Below, piece after piece: positions 823-40,275 of a stretch of 64,000 bases of DNA (the first letter of the stretch is position 1; each line of letters opens with the position of its first letter). Where the stretch lies: the NCBI GenBank assembly GCA_028280815.1, contig JANQLC010000007.1, positions 81,574 to 145,573 of the forward strand, in the 5' to 3' direction. Under the pieces are notes generated by a model that saw only the letters and a program-made list of their open reading frames with translations, ran no database searches and had not been told where the DNA came from. This DNA comes from Flavobacteriales bacterium. GTDB lineage: Bacteria > Bacteroidota > Bacteroidia > Flavobacteriales > JANQLC01. Both the position numbers and the translations under genes were made by a program.

Positions 823-1054
823 CTACCTGAGCTGTGGCAGTCCAACCCAGTTTCTCACCTTTTTTGATCTCATACGACTGGCTTGATTCGATCGATTTTG
901 GGCTCGTTTTACAGCTTCTTCCACCTATGATCCCGATGGAAACGGACCGTGGTATCGTTATAGACGGCGTTGTATTCAAAGATAAGTGCAATGTTCGTCA
1001 AAAGCGCTTCTCGATCCGAGCCGCAACGGGTCAGGGCTTGACCTGCTCCAAGCC

Positions 1055-1800
1055 TTTATTTGGGCTGGCTTTGGTGTGAACTGCTGTTTGATTCTGTCGG
1101 TGGGTTGTTTGATCGGGTTGTCTCCTGTGGGGGTGCATTTGTCCTTTCACGATGGGTGTGGTTGGATTTTGGGTTTCTCGTTTTTTCTCTCGCCCCCATT
1201 TGGGCTTTTTGCATTTGTTTTTTTGCGGTTGGCGTATGCGGGTTTTGTGGCTTGTAGGCTGTCGTTCCGCCGCGTTTGCACGGGGGTATGAGGCGCTATC
1301 TCCCGCCGGATCCTTGTATTCTTCTTTCCTGTGGTTGATATAAGCGGTTTGGGGTGCGTTGTTTTGATTGGGTTGTCTCTTATCGGTTTTTTGCATTTGT
1401 TTTTCTGCCATTTGGTGTGAATGGGCTTTGGATTGCATGGGTTGCTCGGTTTGTTCGGTGGGCTGTTGCCTGATTGGTGTATGAGCCTGTCGGCGGGTTG
1501 GGTTGTTTGATCGGGTTGTCTCCTGTCGGGATTTTGCATTTGTTTTCTACGATTGGCGATGCGGATTTTGGGTTGGATTGACTGGGGCGGCTTGTTCAGT
1601 GGCTTGGTTTGTTGTTGTGGTTGATTGGGTTGACGTGACTGTTTCGTTGATTTGATTGGGCTGCTTGGATTCGGTTTGGTTGCTTTGATGCTGGGTTGTG
1701 GCGCCCTTGTGTCGGCTGGGCCATCTCCTGTCGGATCTTTGCATTTGTCTTTCTATGGTTTGGGGTGGTTGGATTGGTTTTTGCCCATGTGGAAGTGAAA
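1055..1800 (+). repeat. G+T-rich non-coding repeat array, locus 1 (TTTTGCATTTG-type units)
   Basis: The motif (T)TTTGCATTTG recurs at 1133, 1206, 1387, 1532 and 1737. Four of the five copies are preceded by CTC(C/T)T(G/A)T(C/G)GG and all are followed by GT-rich GGNTTGG sequence. Segment 1383-1529 is about 85% identical by eye to 34987-35134. No credible ORF. Confidence 0.7.
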
Positions 1801-1811
1801 GGGAGGGTCGT

Positions 1812-1843
1812 TTTGTACACCTGAAAAATTGTCTTTAATTTTG
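1812..1843 (+). promoter_or_regulatory. Bacteroidota sigma-A type promoter (TTTG-N20-TAATTTTG) in front of bamD
   Basis: TTTG at 1812-1815 and TAATTTTG at 1836-1843 match the TTTG / TAnnTTTG consensus and spacing. The -7 box ends only 4 nt before the GTG at 1848. Confidence 0.4.
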
Positions 1844-8987: not shown

Positions 8988-10817
8988 ATGGATGACAAGC
9001 CGAACTATCTCTCTCTTCTCGGCATCGTACTGATGGTGCTGCTCTTTTACCTCTGGCAAAGTCAACTCAAAAGGGAAGGGGTGAACGGTCCCGCTCGGGC
9101 CCAGGCCGAAAAACCCAGTGCAGCTGCCCAAGGGCAAACTGATACCGAACTGCCCAGCGCTGCGGTTGAGCGCATGGGCCATACGGCTGAGGGGAGTGAG
9201 GCGGACGTGCCCGGTACCACGGTATTGGAAAACGATAAGTTAAAGCTGGTGATAGACAACCAAGGGGGGTGGTTCAAACAGGTGATCATCAAGGGGCACC
9301 GCCCTTATGCTGCCTACAAATCGGGAAAGGATGCACCGCTCTATATGATAAACGGTGGCAATGCCTCCTTTGGGCTTCGCTTTGTGGATGAAGCGGGACA
9401 CGAGGTCAATACGAAAGAACTCTTTTTCACCCCTAGCTTGCAGAAGACGGACAGCACACAGACGCTGAGGATGCGTTTGCAATGGGCTGGCGATAAGCAT
9501 CTGGATTACATTTATACCTTGCGGGATGACTATATGATGGATTTTTCCATTCGGTCGGAAGGCATGCGAAGTGAATGGCAGGAGACAGCGCCCCTGCGAT
9601 TGGATTGGCGTACCCAATCCTTTAGTCGGGATAAGAGTTACGCCATGGAAAAGATGGGAAATGAGTTTTACTACACCTATGAAAACGGCCGGACCGACTA
9701 TATGCGAAGTGATGAGTCGAAGGGCAAGACGGAGCGAGAAGTGGGGTGGATAGCGAGCCACCAAGGCTTTTTTACTTCTATTTTATTGCCGGATAAAAAC
9801 TTTGAGACCGCTACCTTTTTCTTGCAATCCCAAAGGGGTGATTCCACTTTTGTAAAGCGTTATCGAGCGGTTGCAGCTCTACAGCGCACCGATGGGGAGC
9901 TGAGTTATCAAATGAATTGGTACTACGGCCCGGTCAAGTATGAGATACTGCGGCAATACCATCGCAAATTGGAGGCGCAAGTACAGTTTGGCTGGGGTAT
10001 TTTCCGATATGTAAACATGTATTTCATCAATCCGGTGTTTCAATTCTTCCACAACCTCGGCTTGGGCTTTGGCTTGATCATCTTTTTGATGACGATCGTG
10101 ATGAAAATCGTCCTCTCGCCCGTTACCTATAGGCAGTATTTACAGAGCGCCAAGATGCGCATCATCCGGCCTGAGATTCAAGCGATCCATGAGAAGCACA
10201 GCGATAATCCGCATAAGAGACAGATGGAAAGCATGCGGGTACAGAACGAAGCCGGTGCGGGCATGTTGAGCGGCTGTTTGCCAGCGCTCTTTCAAATGCC
10301 CATCCTCTATGCGATGTTTCGATTCTATCCCGCGCTGATCGACCTGCGCCAGCAGCGTTTCTTATGGGCAGACGATTTGACAGCTTATGACTCGGTCTTA
10401 GAATTGCCCTTTCACATTCCGATCTATGGCGACCACGTCAGTCTATTCACCTTTTTAATGGCGATTTCCCTATTCTTTTATACGCGCTTAAACGGTATGG
10501 GCACCGCGCAGCAGCCCATGCAGAAGGGCATGCCCAATATGCGGTTTATGATGTACCTCACGCCGGTTTTCATGTTGTTGTTCTTCAACCATTACGCTTC
10601 GGGCCTGACCTATTACTACTTTGTGGCCAACTTGACCACCATCCTTTTAATTTTGCTGATCAAGCGCTTTATTTTGGACGATGAAAAGATCCATGCCAAG
10701 ATTCAAGCGAGCAAGGCCAAGCCCAAAAAGAAGGGTTCCTTTTCTGAGAAGATGGAAGCGGTGATGCGCCAGGCACAGGAACAGCAAGCGCGCAACAGGC
10801 GTCAGAAAATTCGCTGA
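8988..10817 (+). CDS. yidC: membrane protein insertase YidC
   Basis: An N-terminal TM segment, a large periplasmic domain, and a C-terminal 60-kDa insertase core (KMRIIRPEIQAIHEKH...; GCLPALFQMPILYAMF). Confidence 0.93.
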   Translation: MDDKPNYLSLLGIVLMVLLFYLWQSQLKREGVNGPARAQAEKPSAAAQGQTDTELPSAAVERMGHTAEGSEADVPGTTVLENDKLKLVIDNQGGWFKQVIIKGHRPYAAYKSGKDAPLYMINGGNASFGLRFVDEAGHEVNTKELFFTPSLQKTDSTQTLRMRLQWAGDKHLDYIYTLRDDYMMDFSIRSEGMRSEWQETAPLRLDWRTQSFSRDKSYAMEKMGNEFYYTYENGRTDYMRSDESKGKTEREVGWIASHQGFFTSILLPDKNFETATFFLQSQRGDSTFVKRYRAVAALQRTDGELSYQMNWYYGPVKYEILRQYHRKLEAQVQFGWGIFRYVNMYFINPVFQFFHNLGLGFGLIIFLMTIVMKIVLSPVTYRQYLQSAKMRIIRPEIQAIHEKHSDNPHKRQMESMRVQNEAGAGMLSGCLPALFQMPILYAMFRFYPALIDLRQQRFLWADDLTAYDSVLELPFHIPIYGDHVSLFTFLMAISLFFYTRLNGMGTAQQPMQKGMPNMRFMMYLTPVFMLLFFNHYASGLTYYYFVANLTTILLILLIKRFILDDEKIHAKIQASKAKPKKKGSFSEKMEAVMRQAQEQQARNRRQKIR

Positions 10818-18334: not shown

Positions 18335-20850
18335 TGGTCGCTTGAAAAGGAGAACTCGTTTTGGCGCTCGCCTGTAGGTCAGTAAAAAGCATTTTTTATC
18401 GTCTGACGGTTTAAAGAAGCGGACTTGTCCTTTTGTTTCTGCACTGTGTTTCAGTTGCAAAATGCCGACTGCGGCCTATAATTTGCACGGGCCTGAATCG
18501 CCGGCTCTTATTTTTTTGCTCTTATCCCTGTGGTCAGCTGCGCTGGCCCCGCTACGCAGGTTTGGTAAGAGATGGGCATCTAAGGGGTCAACCCCTTGAT
18601 TCTTTATTGTATGTTCTTCTCAATTGGGTAGGGCCTGAAAGGCTGGTGTTGTTTTCTCGTCTTTGTCCTTTTGTGCGCGTTTGGAGGCTTGGGTCTTGTT
18701 TTCTCGCTGCTGTTTGGCCTTTATAAAACGGCTTGTTTTGCGTTGGGGAGTTCCCGCGTTTTTTGCTTTGTTTCGCCGGTGTTTTGACGAACTGTTTTGT
18801 CGGTTGCCTTGCCGGGTTATTGGGTTGTTGTGTTGCGGTGGGCTGACTGGTTTGAGCTGGCTTGGATTGAGCAGCTGGGTTTGGTTTAGATTGGTTTACA
18901 CAAGGTGTTTAAAAGGCGTTTTTGACAGGGGAAATGAAGGCGGCTCGGTGGTGGCTATGGGTGGGTTGATTTGTTCAGTGGGCAGTGTATGGGTCTATCG
19001 GTTGAATTGGGTGGCTTGGATTGGGTTGTTGGGTTTTGTTGTCGATTGTGTTTGTGGGGCTGGCGAATTGTTAGCTCGGTTGGTTGCCTGACTTTGGTTT
19101 GATTGCTCAGGTGCTGGTTTGTCTTCTTGGTTTTTCTTTTGTGTTGGCTTGATTTCCACCCTTTGGTTTTGTTCTCTTGGGCTTGTTTAAGGGTTTGGGG
19201 CTGTTCTTCCGTTTCTGTTTGTCAGTTTAAAAGGGTTTTTGTCCTCAACCTCTTGAAAAGGGAGGCTTGCCTTTTTGGCTTTGTCGTTTGGGGCGTTTGG
19301 TTGGTTGAATTGGGGTGCGGTGTCGTTGTATTGGCTCGGTTGGGTTGGCACAAAGTGTTTGAAAGGTGTTTTTGCCATTGGGAAAAGGCGGGCCCGTCGG
19401 CGGCTTCGGGTCGGGACTTTTTTATGCTAAGCGGTTTTGAGTCAGCGGCGCTTTCGTATTGATAAAGGTTTGCATTTCACTGGCTTGCTGGGTTTGGGTT
19501 GGTTGAGTTGGGTTAGTCGAATTGCTCTATTGGTTTAGTGGGTTGGTCGGGTGGTGGTTGGTTGACTGGCTTGACTTGGTTGGCTTGGGTTGAGTGGGTT
19601 TGTCGGGTTGGATTGTTTGAGTTGATTGACTCGTTGGGCGTAGTGGGTGCGGTTCGATTGGATTACGTCGGTGCGGTTGGCTTGGATGGGTTACAGTGGA
19701 CTGCGCTCGGTTGGTTTGTTGTGGTTCGTTTGGGTTTGTTTCGGCGTGTTGCGTCGATGTGTTCGTTGGGGTTGGGTGATGGTCTTGTGATGCGGCGGTT
19801 GGATTGGGTTGTGATGCAGGGCGTTGCGTTTGTTTCGTTTGTTTTTTTACCATCCTTGAAAGAAATAAACTACTGCTGTTTTGTATGCTTGTGCTGAGTT
19901 GCTTAGCCCCTACTGGGTTGTTGCGTTGCGGTGGATTGGCTGGCTTGGATTGTCGTAGTGGGTCGGTTTGGGCTAGCCGGCTTGGATGCGCTGATCGATT
20001 GCTTCAGTAGCTTGGTATGGCTGGTTTGTCAGTGTGATTCATCGGGTTGGACTGGGTTGATTTGGATTGGCTCGGTGGATTGGTTTAGTGGATTGGGTTG
20101 CTTCGCACGGGTTGGATGGGTTGTGGTGGTGTCTTTGTGTTGATCGATTGTATTCTTCCTCTTCGATTCCTTTGGTATGGGTTTTTTCTGTGGTCGATAT
20201 AGGTGGATTTTAGACTTCTCGTTTTTTGTCCCTTCTCCTGCAGTTGGTTTTTTTGCGTTTGGCTTTCCGCTGATTGGCTTGGGTGGTTTTGGGCTGGATG
20301 GGCTTGTTTGATGCGTTGTTGCGTTGCTGCATGGCGGTGAGTCGTCGCATTGATTGTGTCGGATTGTTTGATAGGCTTTGAAAGAAGTATGACCCTTGCT
20401 GTTTCGGGTGCTTGGTCTCTCTTGGTTTTGTCGGGTGGGCTGGATTGGCTCGTCGGGCGTAGGGGGGTCGTTTGGATTGGGTTAGGTGTGTGCGATTGGG
20501 TTGGATGGTTTGCGGTTGGTCGGCTCGTTTTCTCGGTTTGGCTCTTTTGTGGTGGCTTGAAGCAGGCGGTTTGTTTTCTCCCTTTTGTGCGCGTTTGAAA
20601 ATTCGCAGCCCTTTCCCCTTTGGCCATTTAAAGAGCGGGGATTATTTTTTGCAAAGGCGTATTGTCTTTCTGGTTTTTCCCTTTTGCGGGCCAAAGCGGG
20701 TGTTCTCGTCTTTGATCGCTGGATTGGGCTTTTCGTCTGAGATGTGTTCTCAGTGCGCTTGGGGTCGAAGGCCTGTCGCCCAATCGGTCTGTTGGAGCTT
20801 TTCGGCTGTCTTTGAAAACATCGGTGTAGCGGTCGAAGTGAGGCTCCAAT
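18335..20850 (+). repeat. G+T-rich non-coding composite repeat block, locus 2 (largest)
   Basis: 2.5 kb without a credible gene. The two lines I counted (19561-19620 and 19741-19800) are 83% and 82% G+T. Contains GGNTTGG simple repeats, GTTTGAAAAG-type units and the conserved box GTGTTT(G/A)AAAGG(C/T)GTTTTTG at 18903 and 19354. Confidence 0.75.
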
Positions 20851-25973: not shown

Positions 25974-26555
25974 CTATGAGGAAACGTGCTCCCAATTTTC
26001 GCCCTTTTTGATGCGGTAGAGTTGCATTTCCGAGATGCCGAATTGTTTGGCGATCATTTTTAAGCGGGTCTTTCGGTTGGGATCGAAGATCCTTCTCTTC
26101 AAGTACTTCACCCGGGTCTCGGTCAGCTTTTTCCCCGCATAGGGCTTGCGGTTTTTATTTTTGGCCTTTCCCAGTATGACATTGGGATTGCGCTCGTGGT
26201 GTTGAACCAATTCGTCTTTGGACACCCATTTCAAATTGGACCAGTGGTTGTTCAACTTGTTGTAATCGATATGGACTATAAATTTTTGCTCTGCTTTCGG
26301 CTTGGGTAAGAAATACTCGGCCACGAGCTGGTGCAGGTACCTGCTCTGATGCAAGAGCTTATCCCGTTTGCTTTTTAACCATACCCGATATTTGAAGACG
26401 GGGTATCCCTCGGCCAAACAGCCTTTTAAGAGCCTACCCTTTTCCAAGTTGGTCTTAAAGCTCATCAAGCGCCCAAAGTCGGAGATGGCATACCGGAATT
26501 TTAAACGGCATTCTAAGGCTACTTCTCTCCATTCTTCTCCAGGGAAGAATCGCAT
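25974..26555 (-). CDS. NUMOD4-motif HNH endonuclease with C-terminal helix-turn-helix
   Basis: GEEWREV...YAISDFGRLMS (NUMOD4), HIDYNKLNNHWSNLKW (HNH_3-type), and a C-terminal MIAKQFGISEMQLYRIKKG. The start is set at ATG 26555. Confidence 0.8.
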   Translation of the reverse strand: MRFFPGEEWREVALECRLKFRYAISDFGRLMSFKTNLEKGRLLKGCLAEGYPVFKYRVWLKSKRDKLLHQSRYLHQLVAEYFLPKPKAEQKFIVHIDYNKLNNHWSNLKWVSKDELVQHHERNPNVILGKAKNKNRKPYAGKKLTETRVKYLKRRIFDPNRKTRLKMIAKQFGISEMQLYRIKKGENWEHVSS

Positions 26556-26861
26556 TATATGTTTTTTGCAAAGGTAAAAATATCGGGCGATAGATTCACT
26601 TCGTTTAACTTGGATGGAAACCTTTGCACCTGGGCTGAAAATGACGGGATGCATTGAAATTTAGACGAGCGATAACTTCTGCGGGATTCAAAGCTGGGAA
26701 AAATGCGTGGATTTGTCAAGAAAATTTGGCTCTACGTGAAAGCTCAGAAAGGGATTTTTGCCAATCGAACAGCGAGTCCAGGATTCAATGGGCTTGGGTT
26801 TCACAGCGCTTAAAGGAATATCCAATATGGACAGCACGAGTATGAGGAGTGCTCAACCCGC

Positions 26862-33620: not shown

Positions 33621-34709
33621 ATGGCAAAAGAAGAACTATTAGACGCCCAATCGCTGTCCTTCTTAGAAGAATACCTCGATACGCCTGCGCCTACTGGCTT
33701 TGAATCCGCTGGACAGAAAGTGTGGCTGGACTACATCAAGCCCTATGTCGATGAAACGCTGGTGGACAACTATGGCTCGGCAGCGGCGATCAGCAATCCG
33801 AAGGCCGACTACAAGGTGGTGGTGGAAGCCCATGCGGACGAGATATCTTGGTTTGTCAATCACATCACCGACGAGGGGCTGATTTACGTGATTCGGAATG
33901 GGGGTTCAGATCACCAGATTGCGCCGAGCAAACGCGTGCACATCCACACCCAAAAGGGTATGATTCCCGGCGTATTTGGCTGGCCTGCCATTCACACCCG
34001 CGACCATGCCAAGGAGGAAGCGCCCAAGCTGGAAAACATCTTTATCGACATCGGTGCGACCAGCAAGGCCGAAGTAGCCGACTTGGGGGTGCATGTGGGC
34101 TGTGTGATCACCTATCCGGATTCCTTTATGGTCTTGAATGATAGGTACTACGTCTGTCGCGCCTTGGACAATCGGATCGGCGGTTTCATGATCGCACAGG
34201 TCGCTCGTTTGTTAAAGGAAAATCAGGTGGACTTACCCTTTGCGCTCTACGTGGTCAATTCCGTACAAGAAGAGGTGGGCTTGCGCGGCGCTGAGATGAT
34301 GACACAGCGCATTAAGCCCGATCTAGCCCTCGTGACCGATGTGACGCATGACACCTCTACCCCGATGATCGACAAACGGAAAGAAGGGGATGTGCGCTGT
34401 GGAAAGGGACCGGTATTGGCCTATGCTCCCGCCGTTCAAAACAATTTGCGAGACCTGCTCATCCATACGGCAGAGAAATGTAAAATCCCCTTTCAACGCG
34501 GTGCACTATCGCGTGTTACCGGTACCGATACCGATGCCTTTGCATACAGCAACGGCGGTGTGGTTAGCGCCCTGGTTTCTCTTCCGCTTCGCTATATGCA
34601 CACCACTGTGGAAATGGTGGAAAAGACTGATGTGAATCATTTGATACGACTGCTGTTCGAGGGCTTGAAAAACATAGGGCACAAGCGGGATTTCAGGTAT
34701 TTGCGCTGA
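33621..34709 (+). CDS. M42 family metallopeptidase (glutamyl aminopeptidase / FrvX-like)
   Basis: LDTPAPTGFE, the HADEI motif, DNRIGG and SVQEEVGLRGA are M42 signatures. The start is moved to ATG 33621. Confidence 0.9.
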   Translation: MAKEELLDAQSLSFLEEYLDTPAPTGFESAGQKVWLDYIKPYVDETLVDNYGSAAAISNPKADYKVVVEAHADEISWFVNHITDEGLIYVIRNGGSDHQIAPSKRVHIHTQKGMIPGVFGWPAIHTRDHAKEEAPKLENIFIDIGATSKAEVADLGVHVGCVITYPDSFMVLNDRYYVCRALDNRIGGFMIAQVARLLKENQVDLPFALYVVNSVQEEVGLRGAEMMTQRIKPDLALVTDVTHDTSTPMIDKRKEGDVRCGKGPVLAYAPAVQNNLRDLLIHTAEKCKIPFQRGALSRVTGTDTDAFAYSNGGVVSALVSLPLRYMHTTVEMVEKTDVNHLIRLLFEGLKNIGHKRDFRYLR

Positions 34710-34837
34710 GGTCCCTCACACCGGACCACCTTTGGAATCGGATAAAAATAACCGAGCCTAGCTTGAATCGACGGGGCTATCGGCTTTGTTTTGAAACTTA
34801 CGGGGCTTTGGCGATCAGCAGGGGAGACTCCATTGCG

Positions 34838-35645
34838 GGCGGGTTTCTAAATGGTGTTGCTCCTGTCGATTTTTTGCATTTGCTTTTCTACGGTTGGTGA
34901 TGGTTAGATTTTGAGCTGGGTTGTTTTTTGTCCTTGTGTTCTCCGTCGGGTTTTTGCACTTCTCATCTCTTTGCTTCTTGTACGGGTCGGTTTTTTGCAT
35001 TTTTTCTACCATTTGGTGTGGATGGACTTTGGATTGCATGGGTTGGGTTACTCAATTTGTTCAGTGTGCTGTTGCCTGATTGGCGTGTGAGCCTGTCGGC
35101 TGGTTGGGTTGTTTGATTGGGTGTCTCTTATCGGTTTTTTGCATTTGTTTTTCTCGGGCGGGTTTTGGATCCTGTGGGTTGGATGGGTCTGTTCTTCATC
35201 GAGTTCCTCGCGTGGGTTTTATGCTTGGCGTAGGTGGGTTTTGAGCTGTGTTGCATTTGCAATGGCTGGACGGGATCGGATCTTTTACACGGGTCTTTTC
35301 TGCGATGGGTGTGGGTGGGTTTTGGACTTCTCGCCTTTTCCCCTTTTTCCTGTTCGGATTTTTTGCATGGGCTTTTTCTGTGGCTGGTTTATGCAGTTTT
35401 GCCGGTTGGTGTACGTCATTTCGCTCTCGTTTGTGCGCGAGTGCATTTGTCGGGTTTTTGCATCGGCATTTTTCGGTTGATGTAGTTGAGTCGGCTGGAT
35501 TTCCACCCAGTGTTTGAAAGGCGTTTTTGCCCTTGGGATTAAGGCGGCTTGTCAAGGGTTGCCAGTCGGCGCTTTTTTACCTGAGCCGTTTTGGGTCGAC
35601 GGCGTTTTTGTATGGATCAGGGCTTGCGTTTCGCTTGAGCCTGGT
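34838..35645 (+). repeat. G+T-rich non-coding repeat array, locus 3
   Basis: TTTTGCA(T/C)TT-type motifs at 34870, 34951, 34991, 35135, 35358, 35451 and 35466. Segment 34987-35134 matches 1383-1529, and 35509-35645 matches 19354-19492. Confidence 0.7.
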
Positions 35646-35685: not shown

Positions 35686-37392
35686 TCAGTGATCCAATTC
35701 CAATTCCAAATCTGTGAGCAGTTTGGCCACGAGCGGATTTTTCGCTGCGAAATAAGCGTATTTTTCCTGGGGCGTATAGGGCAATTTTTCCATTGCTTCT
35801 TCATCCACTCGGGTCCTTATCGAAAGGGTGTAGTTGTCGAGCTTTTCCCGTAGGAAATCGGTCAGTGCTGTCTGGTGCTTTTTAAAATCGTCTAAGAGCG
35901 ATTGGGTGGGCAGGGTATGAGCAATTACGAAGTCCTTTTCTAGCTGGGGATTGGAAGCGGTTAACGAGAGAAAATAGCTGTGTCGCATTTCTTCTTTTTG
36001 CCTTTTTGCAAAGTCATTCCATTGTTTTTTTAAGTCCGATTCTGCAAACGGGGTTTTGGGCAGCTCGTCGCAACCCACCGCCATTTCTTCAGCGGGTGCT
36101 TCTTCGTTGAGCCGAGCTGTAATGGAAAAGGCAGATCGCCGTTTGGCATTTACGATGGATTGAGTCGCTGAGGGTGCTATACCGGATGGGGGGACTTTTT
36201 GCGCCCGGTCAACCTGCTGTGCAGCCACATCTTTTCCGGGTTCCCTACCCGATTCTCTCGACTGGGTTACAGCGGTTGAATCAAGGCTTTTCGGTGGCGA
36301 CGCCACCAGGGGTGTTGCCTTTTTTTTTGCGCTCTGAAAACCCGATCGAGAGGCCAGTTGCACCAAGGCGATCTCTACGGTAAGGCGTTTGTTTTGACTG
36401 GTTTTGAAATGGCGTTCTGCCGCATTGACAATCGCCAAACCATCGAATAAGAAGGGGACAGGGGTTTGCTGTGCTTGCGCTATATATTTTTTTCGAGCCT
36501 CTTCACCCACTTCCAACAAGGCGTGGGTTTGGGGATCCGTAGCGACGAGCAAATCCCGAAGGTGTTCGCCCATACCGGCCAAGAACGACTCAGTTGGGAA
36601 TCCCCTTGTCAAAATTTCATCGTATTGGAGCAACAATCCCCTGTAGTCCCCCTGTAGCATAAGATCAGTCGCCTCGAAGAAGTATGTGTGGTCTAAGACG
36701 TTTAAATTTTCCGATACGGCAGCCCACGTCAGCTTTTTACCGGTAAAGGAAACCAGGCGGTCAAATAGGGAAAGCGCGTCTCGCAAGGCGCCATCGGCCT
36801 TTTGAGCGATGAGGTGCAAGGCATCACCTTCCACCTCGACCTGTTCTCTATCGGCTATTTTCTCGAGCTGCGCTTTGATGTCGGATACGCTGATCCGCTT
36901 GAAATCATAGATCTGGCAACGCGAGCGTATCGTGGGAATGATCCTGTGCTTCTCCGTAGTGGCCAAGATGAAGACGACGTGTTTGGGTGGCTCTTCGAGA
37001 GTTTTTAAAAAGGCGTTAAAGGCGGCTTGTGAGAGCATGTGCACTTCATCGATGATATACACCTTGTACTTTCCCACCTGAGGGGCGAATCGAACTTGCT
37101 CGCTAAGTGAACGAATGTCATCTACAGAATTGTTTGAAGCCGCATCCAATTCAAAGATGTTAAATGAAAAATCGCTTTTCTGAGCGTCCGAAGTCGATTC
37201 GTTGAGCTTTCGGGCTACAATACGGGCACAGCTGGTTTTACCCACGCCACGCGGACCGCAGAACAACAAGGCCTGTGCCAGCTGATTCGCATCTATGGCT
37301 TGCTGCAAGGCAGTCGCAATGGCGCGCTGGCCGACTAAGTCCTCAAATCGGTCTGGCCGGTATTTTCTGGCCGATACGACGTATTGCTCCAC
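35686..37392 (-). CDS. dnaX: DNA polymerase III subunit gamma/tau
   Basis: VSARKYRPDRFEDLVGQ, Walker A GPRGVGKTS, and IIDEVHMLS. The start is set at GTG 37392 (V-EQYVVSARKYRP); the ORF-track start at 37440 is an alternative. Confidence 0.93.
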   Translation of the reverse strand: MEQYVVSARKYRPDRFEDLVGQRAIATALQQAIDANQLAQALLFCGPRGVGKTSCARIVARKLNESTSDAQKSDFSFNIFELDAASNNSVDDIRSLSEQVRFAPQVGKYKVYIIDEVHMLSQAAFNAFLKTLEEPPKHVVFILATTEKHRIIPTIRSRCQIYDFKRISVSDIKAQLEKIADREQVEVEGDALHLIAQKADGALRDALSLFDRLVSFTGKKLTWAAVSENLNVLDHTYFFEATDLMLQGDYRGLLLQYDEILTRGFPTESFLAGMGEHLRDLLVATDPQTHALLEVGEEARKKYIAQAQQTPVPFLFDGLAIVNAAERHFKTSQNKRLTVEIALVQLASRSGFQSAKKKATPLVASPPKSLDSTAVTQSRESGREPGKDVAAQQVDRAQKVPPSGIAPSATQSIVNAKRRSAFSITARLNEEAPAEEMAVGCDELPKTPFAESDLKKQWNDFAKRQKEEMRHSYFLSLTASNPQLEKDFVIAHTLPTQSLLDDFKKHQTALTDFLREKLDNYTLSIRTRVDEEAMEKLPYTPQEKYAYFAAKNPLVAKLLTDLELELDH

Positions 37393-38749: not shown

Positions 38750-40275
38750 CAGCCTCAGTTTTTGCATTTATGCGGTGTCTCGTTTGTAAAATCCCAGTGT
38801 CGCATAAATCATATGTTTGGGCTTCAAAGGGGATAAGCTCGTTTTTTTGTTTTATCCCCATAGGGTTGATTTAAAAGTCGGTCTTCCCATTTTGTTTTAG
38901 CCTTGTGAGATCGGCCTGAAAACCCAAGCCTATCTCTCCCCTATGGGTCTATCTGAAAAGCGCCTCTTATTTTTGGCGCTTGTGCATTCCGGTTGTAAAA
39001 TCGCAATCACCTCGTCGGTCAAACCGGATCAACCTCAAGGGTTTTTACCATATAGTTAAACTAAGGGACTGAAGAATAGATTTGTCTTTATCTTGTGAGA
39101 GTGGTTTGAAAGGGGTCTATTTTTTGATCCCATCCCTGTTGTGGGGCCGTTTGAAAGGGAGGCTTATTCTTTGATTTTTGCCTATCTCTGTGGGTCGGTT
39201 TAGAAGGCGAATTGTTTTTCCCTTTCCGTTTGGTAGCTTAAAAATGAGGCTCGTCTTTTGTTTTGCCTTTGTCCTCTCTGGTGCAGGTCCCGATGTTGGC
39301 CTAAATCGAAAGTGTCTAAACAAGGGTTTATTTTTTGTGCTTGTCCCTGTGTGGGATTTGAAGGGGGCTTATTTCTTTGTTGTCGTCCTTGGGATTCGGT
39401 TTAAAAAGTCGGTGCTATCTCTCGCCCTGTGAGGTGGAGCTGAAAAGTGGGCATGCTTTTCTACTTTTGTGTTGATCTGAAGAATCCGCCTTGTCTTTGG
39501 TTTCCGTAGAGCCAGTGCGGCTGGGTTTTGTTGTATTTTCAACTTGGGGGCATTCTGAAAAGCAGGGTTTACGCTTTCACTTTGTCCTTTTGTGGTAACT
39601 CGGTGGGGCAGGGATTTATTTTTTGTTTTTGTCCTGTGCGGCAGTTTAAAAAGGGGGACTCTTGTGCCTACCTCTGTTGTGCCCCGGCTGCAAAATCCCA
39701 ATCGCGTCATCGTGGTCAAATCGGTACAGTACTGCCTTGGGAAACGGCTGAGAAGGGGCTTATCTCTTTTTGTGTTTATCTGTGCAGCAGTTGGAAAGTC
39801 AGATTTGCTCTTTGGTTTTATCTCCGTATGGATATAGCAATGCGAAAATCCAGCTCTGTCTCTTTCTTCTGTGTGACGGTTTGAAAAGCGGCCTTATTCT
39901 TTTGTTTATATGCTTCCAGCTGCAAAAGTCCAATTGCATCGTCGATCAAATCGGAAGGGACTTGTTTTTTGTCCCCGAGGAGCCTGGAAAGCGGGTCTTG
40001 TCTTTATCCGGCGTATCGGTTTTGAAAATGGGGTGGTTTTTTTGCCTTTGTTCTGGTTTGGCAGTTTAAAAAGAGCGCTTTTTTGTCTGATCGGCAATCG
40101 ATTTGGGTTGGCTCCACTGGTTTTATCAGGTGTTTATCCCGGCGTGCTTTGGTCTGAAAAAGCGGCTTTATCCGCTGTGAGGAGTCTGAGTCTCCAACTC
40201 TATTTTTGCCCTTTTGCGCGGGTTTGAAAGAGATCGTCCTATTTCTTTGCGTTTGCCTCTACGCGCTTTGGGTGT
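38750..40275 (+). repeat. tandem array of roughly two dozen degenerate 36-60 bp units (GTTTGAAAAG...CTTATTCTTTTGTTT...CTGTG), locus 4 of the GT-rich family
   Basis: Unit starts read at 39103, 39149, 39198, 39237 and so on (periods 46, 49, 39). A sub-repeat CTGCAAAA(T/G)(C)CCAAT.GC.TC.TCG..(G/A)TCAAA(T/C)CGG occurs at 38992, 39687 and 39918. A TTTTTGCATTT motif lies at 38758. Confidence 0.75.

Follow-up and report, generated by a model that had tools for sequence, protein, structure and literature searches.

Arrays of mosaic, hairpin-free intergenic repeats with a single strand orientation in an uncultured coral-associated member of the Flavobacteriaceae

The window analyzed here, a stretch of 64,000 nucleotides (nt) from the genome of an uncultured coral-associated member of the Flavobacteriaceae, contains several arrays of degenerate repeats, the first of which lies between a tRNA-Ser(GCU) gene and bamD, and in which a core motif, TTTTGCATTTG, recurs. 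The arrays are mosaics of modules in direct orientation on a single strand; they show no coding, RNA-structure or canonical promoter signature, are restricted to one lineage and are absent at orthologous sites in relatives. The explanation that we favour, with about even confidence and on the basis of sequence comparison, is that they represent a lineage-specific family of non-coding mosaic intergenic repeats, hairpin-free and kept in one-strand orientation, that grows via local duplication and exchange between arrays. According to this explanation, repeat units of one kind (type A), core-to-core blocks of around 145 nt and short satellites of the TTGGN type would be joined head-to-tail, always in one orientation, to build tracts of 0.7-2 kb with around 75% G+T and around 10% A on one strand. 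The arrays would expand and turn over fast through local duplication or unequal exchange, and blocks would also be transferred between distant arrays. They would become established in intergenic DNA, frequently in the gaps of convergent gene pairs and at breakpoints of synteny, and be tolerated there in a host-associated bacterium, presumably without a sequence-specific cellular function. They would not be cis-regulatory elements of the adjoining genes. The core resembles a promoter -7 box in which a key base is altered.

Three tracts with around 75% G+T and around 10% A on the + strand were found in the window (1022-1826, 18594-20631 and 34782-35518; arrays 1 to 3) and none on the - strand, and the repeat arrays occupy roughly 8% of the 64 kb. 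A fourth array, with one type-A unit in the same orientation, is located around 5 kb past the window, where a short-read contig ends. The original prediction, which had been made from the letters of the sequence, had missed the second tract, the array beyond the window and a second repeat family at 38.8-40.3 kb ('type C', see below), but its description of the first was largely accurate. Array 1 (A 9%, C 17%, G 34%, T 41%) spans 1022-1826 of the intergenic gap (824-1847) and stops just ahead of the canonical bamD promoter (1813-1843). The five copies of the motif that had been placed between 1055 and 1800 are all there: three have an exact core (1207-1217, 1389-1399 and the reference core TTTTGCATTTG at 1532-1542, within the 30-nt module GGGTTGTCTCCTGTCGGGATTTTGCATTTG at 1513-1542), one has a core with one mismatch (1737-1747), and the copy at around 1132-1142 retains only GTGCATTTG. 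The GT-rich right flank that had been assigned to each copy is followed approximately, as ..TTGG..GGATTTTGGG, and a left module CTCCTGTCGG (variant CTCTTATCGG) precedes four of the five cores, being absent at the 1207 copy. The further variants that had been placed in 34870-35477 were recovered as 7-9 variant units, and the isolated site at 38758 corresponds to a 10/11 core match at 38760, although this is a lone core-like match in which the unit model described below sees no unit.

The type-A unit measures around 75 nt and consists of a left module GGGTTGTCTCCTGTCGG, a T-run followed by GCATTTG, and a right module TTTCTAYGRTTGG..GCGGATTTTGGGTTGG. The consensus of 15 aligned units reads ..GGGTTGTCTCCTGTCGG-n-TTTTTGCATTTG-yyTTTCTAyrrTTGG-yG..GCGGATTTTGGGTTGG. 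A hidden Markov model (HMM) of the unit, used with nhmmer, gave 19 hits in the window, which without exception fall in arrays and on the + strand, never in genes, and three units in the nearest relative of the source organism (the sister species, see below). Units of array 1 are found at 1107-1180, 1182-1261, 1293-1367, 1363-1445, 1505-1585 and 1712-1790; those of array 2 at 20178-20221 and 20224-20306; and those of array 3 at 34848-34925, 34926-34968, 34976-35048, 35116-35183, 35219-35255, 35279-35330, 35336-35419 and 35429-35503 (all +). The copies are 62-93% identical, irregularly spaced and in direct orientation throughout, and no inverted repeat was detected in arrays 1, 2 and 3. Given the low identity and the irregular spacing, a CRISPR (clustered regularly interspaced short palindromic repeats) array was rejected.

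The three arrays differ in their make-up. At 2 kb, array 2 (A 10%, T 40%, G 35%) is the largest of the G+T-rich tracts; it is located in a 3.6-kb gene-poor gap with an outer-membrane efflux gene on one side and prfB on the other, and consists mostly of degenerate satellite of the TTGGN / TGG(A/G/C)TTG type, with periods of around 5, 9, 14 and 28 nt. Tandem Repeats Finder (TRF) called periods of 14 and 28 nt inside array 2 only (59-65% matches), leaving arrays 1 and 3 uncalled, and autocorrelation peaks at 5, 9 and 14 nt were likewise confined to array 2. Array 3 lies between the convergent M42 peptidase gene (ending at 34709) and dnaX (ending at 35686). Cores in arrays 1 and 3 follow one another at intervals of 41-205 nt. 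The composition of the arrays (50% GC, AT skew about -0.6) does not follow that of four-fold degenerate sites (66% GC, AT skew -0.14), and the remaining intergenic regions are unskewed. A genome-wide mutational skew as the source of the G+T richness was rejected on these grounds; as the composition differs from the neutral equilibrium of the genome, it is a property of the amplified sequence. No G-quadruplex motif was found on the G-rich strand of the arrays. Separately, a 155-nt block of ordinary composition inside array 2 (19327-19481) is 74.5% identical to one at the right edge of array 3 (35481-35635); it begins with GTGTTTGAAAGGYGTTTTTGCC and has GC-rich hairpin-like stretches followed by T-runs.

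The recurrence of the core is far beyond chance. Allowing at most one mismatch, TTTTGCATTTG has 16 matches in the window against 3.9 +/- 1.9 in whole-window shuffles, none of 100 shuffles reaching 16; 14 of these matches are on the + strand and the majority within long intergenic regions. The shorter TGCATTTG occurs nine times on the + strand, every time in the tracts, and twice on the - strand. The heptamers TTTGCAT and TGCATTT occur 10-11 times in the G+T-rich tracts, where a first-order model derived from these same tracts predicts around 1.1, and this roughly tenfold excess implies that the enrichment is no by-product of composition. Since the motif is confined to intergenic arrays and nearly always lies on one strand, it is neither at chance frequency nor equally common in genes or on both strands, which are the two outcomes that the original prediction had named as speaking against a selected site.

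One conceivable origin of such an enrichment is binding by a protein. In Bacteroidota the sigma-A consensus consists of TTG at -33 and TAnnTTTG at -7 (PMC9723704). The window has three canonical promoters of this kind, all TTG-N20-TA(C/A)(A/T)TTTG, with the boxes TACATTTG and TAATTTTG, and the core TGCATTTG agrees at seven of eight positions with TACATTTG, which serves two strong promoters of the window, those of tRNA-Ser and rpsF, as -7 box. The unit might accordingly be a protein-binding module in which TGCATTTG, as a -7-box-like site or the site of a dedicated protein, is recognized either by a regulator or by RNA polymerase with the primary sigma factor; the arrays would then serve RNA polymerase as decoy or pause sites, or would be tandem weak promoters that yield GU-rich transcripts. 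That the core is only one base off these boxes, is around tenfold enriched over local composition on one strand only, is followed at 5-7 nt by a TA-N3-TTGG box that reads TATAAT in the sister species, and forms with the left module the best-conserved part of the unit across species, all argues for this possibility. Nevertheless, the altered base is precisely the A of TAnnTTTG, a highly conserved -7 position (PMC9723704), which is replaced by G (position 2) in 13 of the 15 aligned units. The closest TTG, where present, is 16 nt upstream of the core, whereas this distance is 20 nt in each of the window's three canonical promoters (19-21 expected). The A of TAnnTTTG is essential for promoter function, and a sigma-A promoter was rejected on the key base and the spacing together. 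A sigma-54 promoter (TGGCAC-N5-TTGCW; GG-N10-GC) was rejected as well, for TTGCA is present but the upstream GG is 4-5 nt too close and TGGCAC is absent, and a sigma-70 scan gave nothing. Considering further that about a third of the units are without the core and that the arrays are missing at orthologous loci, we regard a protein-binding module as rather unlikely.

The original prediction had also entertained an RNA motif, which found no support. A search of all arrays against Rfam returned nothing at the gathering score nor at E <= 5 (Flavo-1 included), and the folding z-scores of the two strands (+0.8 and +0.4) are no better than those of shuffles, by which a structured RNA was ruled out. 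A UUUGCAU / AUGCGGA helix within the unit was seen by eye in 2-3 copies and dropped, because a G-G mismatch breaks it in most others. A sponge RNA of the CsrB/RsmZ type was considered in view of the GGA in the GGATTTTGG modules, but the hairpins, promoter and terminator were not found.

The arrays could still act at the level of RNA or transcription through their composition. The + strand transcript would be an unstructured GU-rich RNA that titrates an RNA-binding protein, or else the C/A-rich, G-poor - strand transcript would be an extended Rho-loading site that forms a one-way barrier to convergent read-through. The - strand RNA indeed has 34% C and 17% G and is almost unstructured (-24 kcal/mol for 301 nt); the - strand genes prfB, dnaX and sucC each have an array directly downstream of them (array 2, array 3 or the type-C array described below), and several arrays of the sister species are downstream of convergent genes, that for transfer-messenger RNA (tmRNA) included. 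On the other hand, no - strand gene reads into array 1, the orthologous convergent gap of the sister species works with 150 nt, a tract of 1-2 kb far exceeds what a terminator needs, no promoter or terminator delimits a small RNA, and the conserved core is left unexplained. We therefore consider an effect of composition very unlikely.

A coding role of the core on the opposite strand seems hardly credible. There, the core reads CAAATGCAAAA, and several copies would start a small protein M-Q-(K/N)-(P/T)-D-(R/K)-R-Q-P from the ATG in the core. An A-rich context, which is typical of translation starts in Bacteroidota, precedes this ATG, and the first nine codons are alike in several copies, one of them in the sister species, with GAC/GAT and AGG/AAG exchanges that look synonymous or conservative. 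The closest copies (86% identity), however, differ by 1-nt and 5-nt indels just downstream, so that the reading frames diverge after around seven codons, and the lengths and frames of the open reading frames (ORFs) are inconsistent. No homologue was found at E <= 10 among 5.8 billion proteins, a collection from which the ORF itself is absent. Moreover, such A-poor and T-poor strands lack stop codons through composition alone. Small - strand ORFs were rejected on the indels and the lack of homologues.

To place the arrays in an evolutionary context, the relatives of the source organism are relevant. The L9 protein of the window and its flanking DNA were found at 99.6-100% identity in Tara scaffolds and in the Logan assemblies SRR20820732 and SRR20820734. 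The nearest relative, here called the sister species, is represented by MAG2-Ocu2016 (GCA_036881805.1) together with GCA_044670265.1, the former being a metagenome-assembled genome (MAG) obtained from the coral Oculina patagonica (PMC11520598). Its BamD and DnaX are each 76% identical to those of the window and its four-fold sites 69.5% identical, whereas the DnaX of named genera is only around 50% identical. Exact-protein look-ups with the longest-ORF versions of BamD and the M42 peptidase found no record, which is due to the choice of start codon. The family appears to be rare: an exact-pattern scan of 596 Gb of reference genomes gave one true hit, and the metagenomes of the Joint Genome Institute (JGI) gave no true hit, all matches there being fortuitous and within coding sequence. 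Contigs from independent short-read assemblies (Logan, Tara) start or stop within the arrays or at their edges (at 1377, 17287 and 35305 in the window, and at the end of contig L020, around window coordinate 69500), so that a second assembly confirms only parts of arrays 1 and 3; just one assembly supports the arrays at their full length, and the sole other contig at array 2 begins exactly at the array edge.

The positions of the arrays are not conserved. The gap between the M42 peptidase gene and dnaX, which measures 976 nt in the window and contains array 3, measures 150 nt in the sister species, with at most one degenerate proto-unit, and no array was found in this gap in a more distant relative (DnaX 58% identical). 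Likewise, there is no array upstream of bamD in the sister species or in a relative with a 64% identical BamD, and the bamD promoter itself is kept in the sister species (1813-1850 in the window, 9965-10003 in the sister-species sequence L012). It follows that for none of these three genes (the M42 peptidase gene, dnaX and bamD) are the arrays conserved cis-elements. The three type-A units of the sister species are found at a different, non-syntenic locus. Within the window, arrays 1 and 3, although 34 kb apart, can be aligned over 169 nt at 86% identity and over a 55-nt piece at 93%; the 169-nt alignment corresponds to the core-to-core block of around 165 nt (1383-1546 against 34987-35151, both +; indels of 3, 5, 1 and 8 nt) that was obtained by blastn of the window against itself and subsequent alignment. 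Since these identities exceed the 70% identity at synonymous sites, the copying between arrays 1 and 3 postdates the species split, and the family has thus recently been duplicating and moving between loci; we infer local duplication combined with exchange between arrays as the process.

Movement of this kind could also be that of non-autonomous mobile elements, similar to repetitive extragenic palindromic (REP) sequences or miniature inverted-repeat transposable elements (MITEs) and possibly moved as single-stranded DNA. The 30-nt module would then be the end recognized by a transposase or nickase whose gene lies elsewhere in the genome, and insertion into existing copies would build the arrays. 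The blocks common to arrays 34 kb apart at an identity above species divergence, the extension of the shared block from one core to the next, the non-syntenic locus in the sister species and the location of every copy on the same strand are consistent with this; same-strand orientation is known for insertions of the IS200/IS605 type. On the other hand, none of the arrays has inverted repeats, hairpins or terminal inverted repeats, neither strand gives a folding signal, and the spacing is irregular, the copies being mosaics rather than discrete elements with defined ends. No transposase or REP-associated tyrosine transposase (RAYT) was found among the 20 ORFs of the window that were scanned (around 70 kb of genome covered), and there was no match in plasmids, phages or viral contigs. 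A mobile origin is, in our judgment, unlikely. As specific candidates, a MITE was rejected on the missing inverted repeats and undefined ends, a palindrome of the type found in REP sequences and bacterial interspersed mosaic elements (BIMEs) on the zero inverted repeats in arrays 1-3 and the folding result, and a plasmid, phage or viral origin on the lack of similarity.

The single orientation of the repeats appears to be a property of the chromosome strand. The segment from a pyridine-nucleotide oxidoreductase gene to rplI, which includes the M42 peptidase gene, dnaX and rpsF-rpsR-rplI, is inverted between the window (around 22.2-40.3 kb) and the sister species (L017, 8.3-21.7 kb), and repeat arrays are located at the borders of the inversion. 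Despite the inversion, the contig strand on which the type-C repeats beside rplI are T-rich does not differ between the species, so that their orientation tracks the chromosome strand rather than the gene beside them. In the window, in L020 and in the contig of the sister species alike, the strand of positive GC skew is the one on which the arrays are rich in G+T, and the inversion does not alter this; the exception is the type-A array in L006 of the sister species. The strand that bears the G+T richness, with its weakly positive GC skew, is probably the leading strand, and the orientation may accordingly be linked to the direction of replication. Inside genes, TGGATTG is skewed 10 to 1 and TTTTGGC 15 to 0, but these were chosen from 16,384 7-mers and are not significant after correction. 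As a separate observation, runs of six T inside genes number 71 on the + strand and 33 on the - strand irrespective of gene direction, and GCAAAAA occurs 20 times on the sense strand of - strand genes and three times on that of + strand genes, which suggests a replication-linked strand asymmetry of homopolymer runs.

The central claim of the original prediction was that the core is invariant within otherwise drifting sequence and therefore a selected site. The invariance could not be upheld. A model based on the right flank only finds 13 units, six of which have the full core, three a partial core and four have lost it, and given that units found via the flank keep the full core in only 6 of 13 cases, the 'invariant' character is partly a matter of ascertainment. 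Of the two copies that form the youngest pair, one has a core with a 3-nt deletion. In a gapped alignment the left module TCTCCTGTCGG is conserved as well as the core, a comparison of little power because the random-position control scored 0.69-0.77. The enriched core appears to reflect mostly the descent of the copies from a common unit.

Some observations nevertheless weigh against a family of repeats that is shaped by duplication and exchange alone. The 12-mer TTTTTGCATTTG is the best-conserved block in the alignment of 15 units, albeit that these units were picked via the core itself, and the core and left module retain C and A despite the very A-poor background. One unit of the sister species agrees with a unit of the window at 29 of 30 positions over left module and core, and is around 65% identical elsewhere, a pattern that constraint on the module would yield as well. 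As proof of selection this agreement was downgraded in view of the 70% identity measured at synonymous sites; as these sites are still so similar and many pairs of units were compared, it is only suggestive. The L006 array of the sister species, oppositely oriented relative to the local GC skew, implies that the replication-linked rule is not absolute. Finally, simple neutral duplication accounts neither for the extreme A depletion nor for the orientation shared by every array over around 70 kb, both of which hint at a directional mechanism or selection. Taken together, these results lend only partial support to the notion of a selected site: the motif is clearly non-random, intergenic, one-stranded, best conserved within the unit and nearly identical in a sister-species copy, but its core is not invariant, an RNA role is unsupported and the arrays are absent from orthologous gaps.

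The arrays could also be functional polar chromosome elements, with a protein that recognizes either the 30-nt module GGGTTGTCTCCTGTCGGGNTTTTGCATTTG or the single strand rich in GT, always in the same orientation with respect to replication. Such arrays would be directional recombination hot spots, barriers to replication or transcription, or loading sites. This possibility fits because the uniform orientation persists across the inversion, the A depletion is extreme and the arrays are positioned at synteny breakpoints; we nevertheless consider it quite unlikely. To our knowledge, Chi-like, KOPS-like (FtsK orienting polar sequence) and Ter-like sequences are essentially unknown in Bacteroidota. 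The arrays resemble Chi and KOPS in being G/T-rich and co-oriented along the chromosome whatever the direction of the genes, but those motifs are single 5-8-mers scattered in genes over a whole replichore, whereas here the motifs form kb-scale intergenic arrays.

Among known systems, the closest kinds are the mosaic repeats of the BOX/BIME type and minisatellites, from which the family differs in the lack of dyad symmetry, the extreme A depletion and the uniform orientation. With BOX of Streptococcus pneumoniae, BIME/REP and the enterobacterial repetitive intergenic consensus (ERIC) it shares short non-coding modules in variable number and order, an intergenic location at multiple loci, lineage specificity and fast turnover. 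Those families, however, are based on stem-loops or dyad symmetry and are frequently found in either orientation, while the present arrays have no inverted repeats and around 10% A, keep a single orientation over around 70 kb and reach 2 kb. With minisatellites and satellites they have in common the head-to-tail degenerate copies, the apparent growth and shrinkage by duplication or unequal exchange and, in array 2, TRF periods of 14 and 28 nt, but arrays 1 and 3 lack a fixed period and are mosaics of at least three module types. The likeness to a sigma-A promoter of Bacteroidota extends to seven of eight -7-box positions and ends with the G at position 2 and the TTG at 16 nt; moreover, the units are not placed before genes.

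If the arrays are only fast-evolving repeats, their value is mainly practical and descriptive: they fragment short-read assemblies of this coral-associated lineage, mark rearrangement breakpoints, and illustrate that a bacterium can carry kb-scale satellite-like DNA that is hairpin-free and oriented on one strand. Should the orientation and the 30-nt module reflect recognition by a protein, they would constitute a new kind of directional chromosomal element in Bacteroidota.

The genes that border array 1 have canonical promoters. On the left, the tRNA-Ser(GCU) gene (739-823, +; ARAGORN, Rfam) is preceded by the promoter TTG-N20-TACATTTG (674-704, +), which was identified with a promoter regular expression. 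On the right, bamD (1848-2717, +), identified via Pfam and homologues as encoding a YfiO/TPR lipoprotein, has the canonical Bacteroidota promoter TTG-N20-TAATTTTG (1813-1843, +), which is separate from the array. This promoter stops 4 nt ahead of the GTG that opens the lipoprotein signal peptide, suggesting a leaderless or nearly leaderless mRNA. One gene caller put the start of BamD 26 codons later, at an ATG, by which the signal peptide is lost in that annotation.

Downstream of rplI a second, T-rich repeat family ('type C'; 38800-40260, +) is found with units GGTTTGAAAAGSGG..TTATTTTTTG..CCCTGTGGG of around 45-65 nt. It is also present in the sister species, in kb-scale arrays with the same strand orientation (L012 2700-3960 and 6800-7960; L006 5900-6260; L017 8300-8490). 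Some type-C units can form a short hairpin with arms of a G-run and C-run or an A-run and T-run; the family has no Rfam match and its overall folding is not significant. The sequence CTGCAAAATCCCAATCGC recurs in the type-C arrays of both species (39688-39730 and 39920-39960 in the window; L012 at around 3088, 7674 and 7795); in the window it continues ..GGTCAAATCGG, with two matches (<=3 mismatches) against 0.15 expected. In the sister species, L012 has a further type of array (1640-2700) with units of around 20-40 nt such as TTTTTGCG(A/T)CTTGGG, which has the theme of a T-run followed by GC(A/G) in common with the core of the window and adjoins a tmRNA-like gene on the opposite strand (identified by eye). 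Lastly, a free-standing gene of the homing-endonuclease type, with NUMOD4 and HNH_3 domains, occupies the same syntenic position in both species (25974-26654 in the window, - strand; L017 20236-21096).

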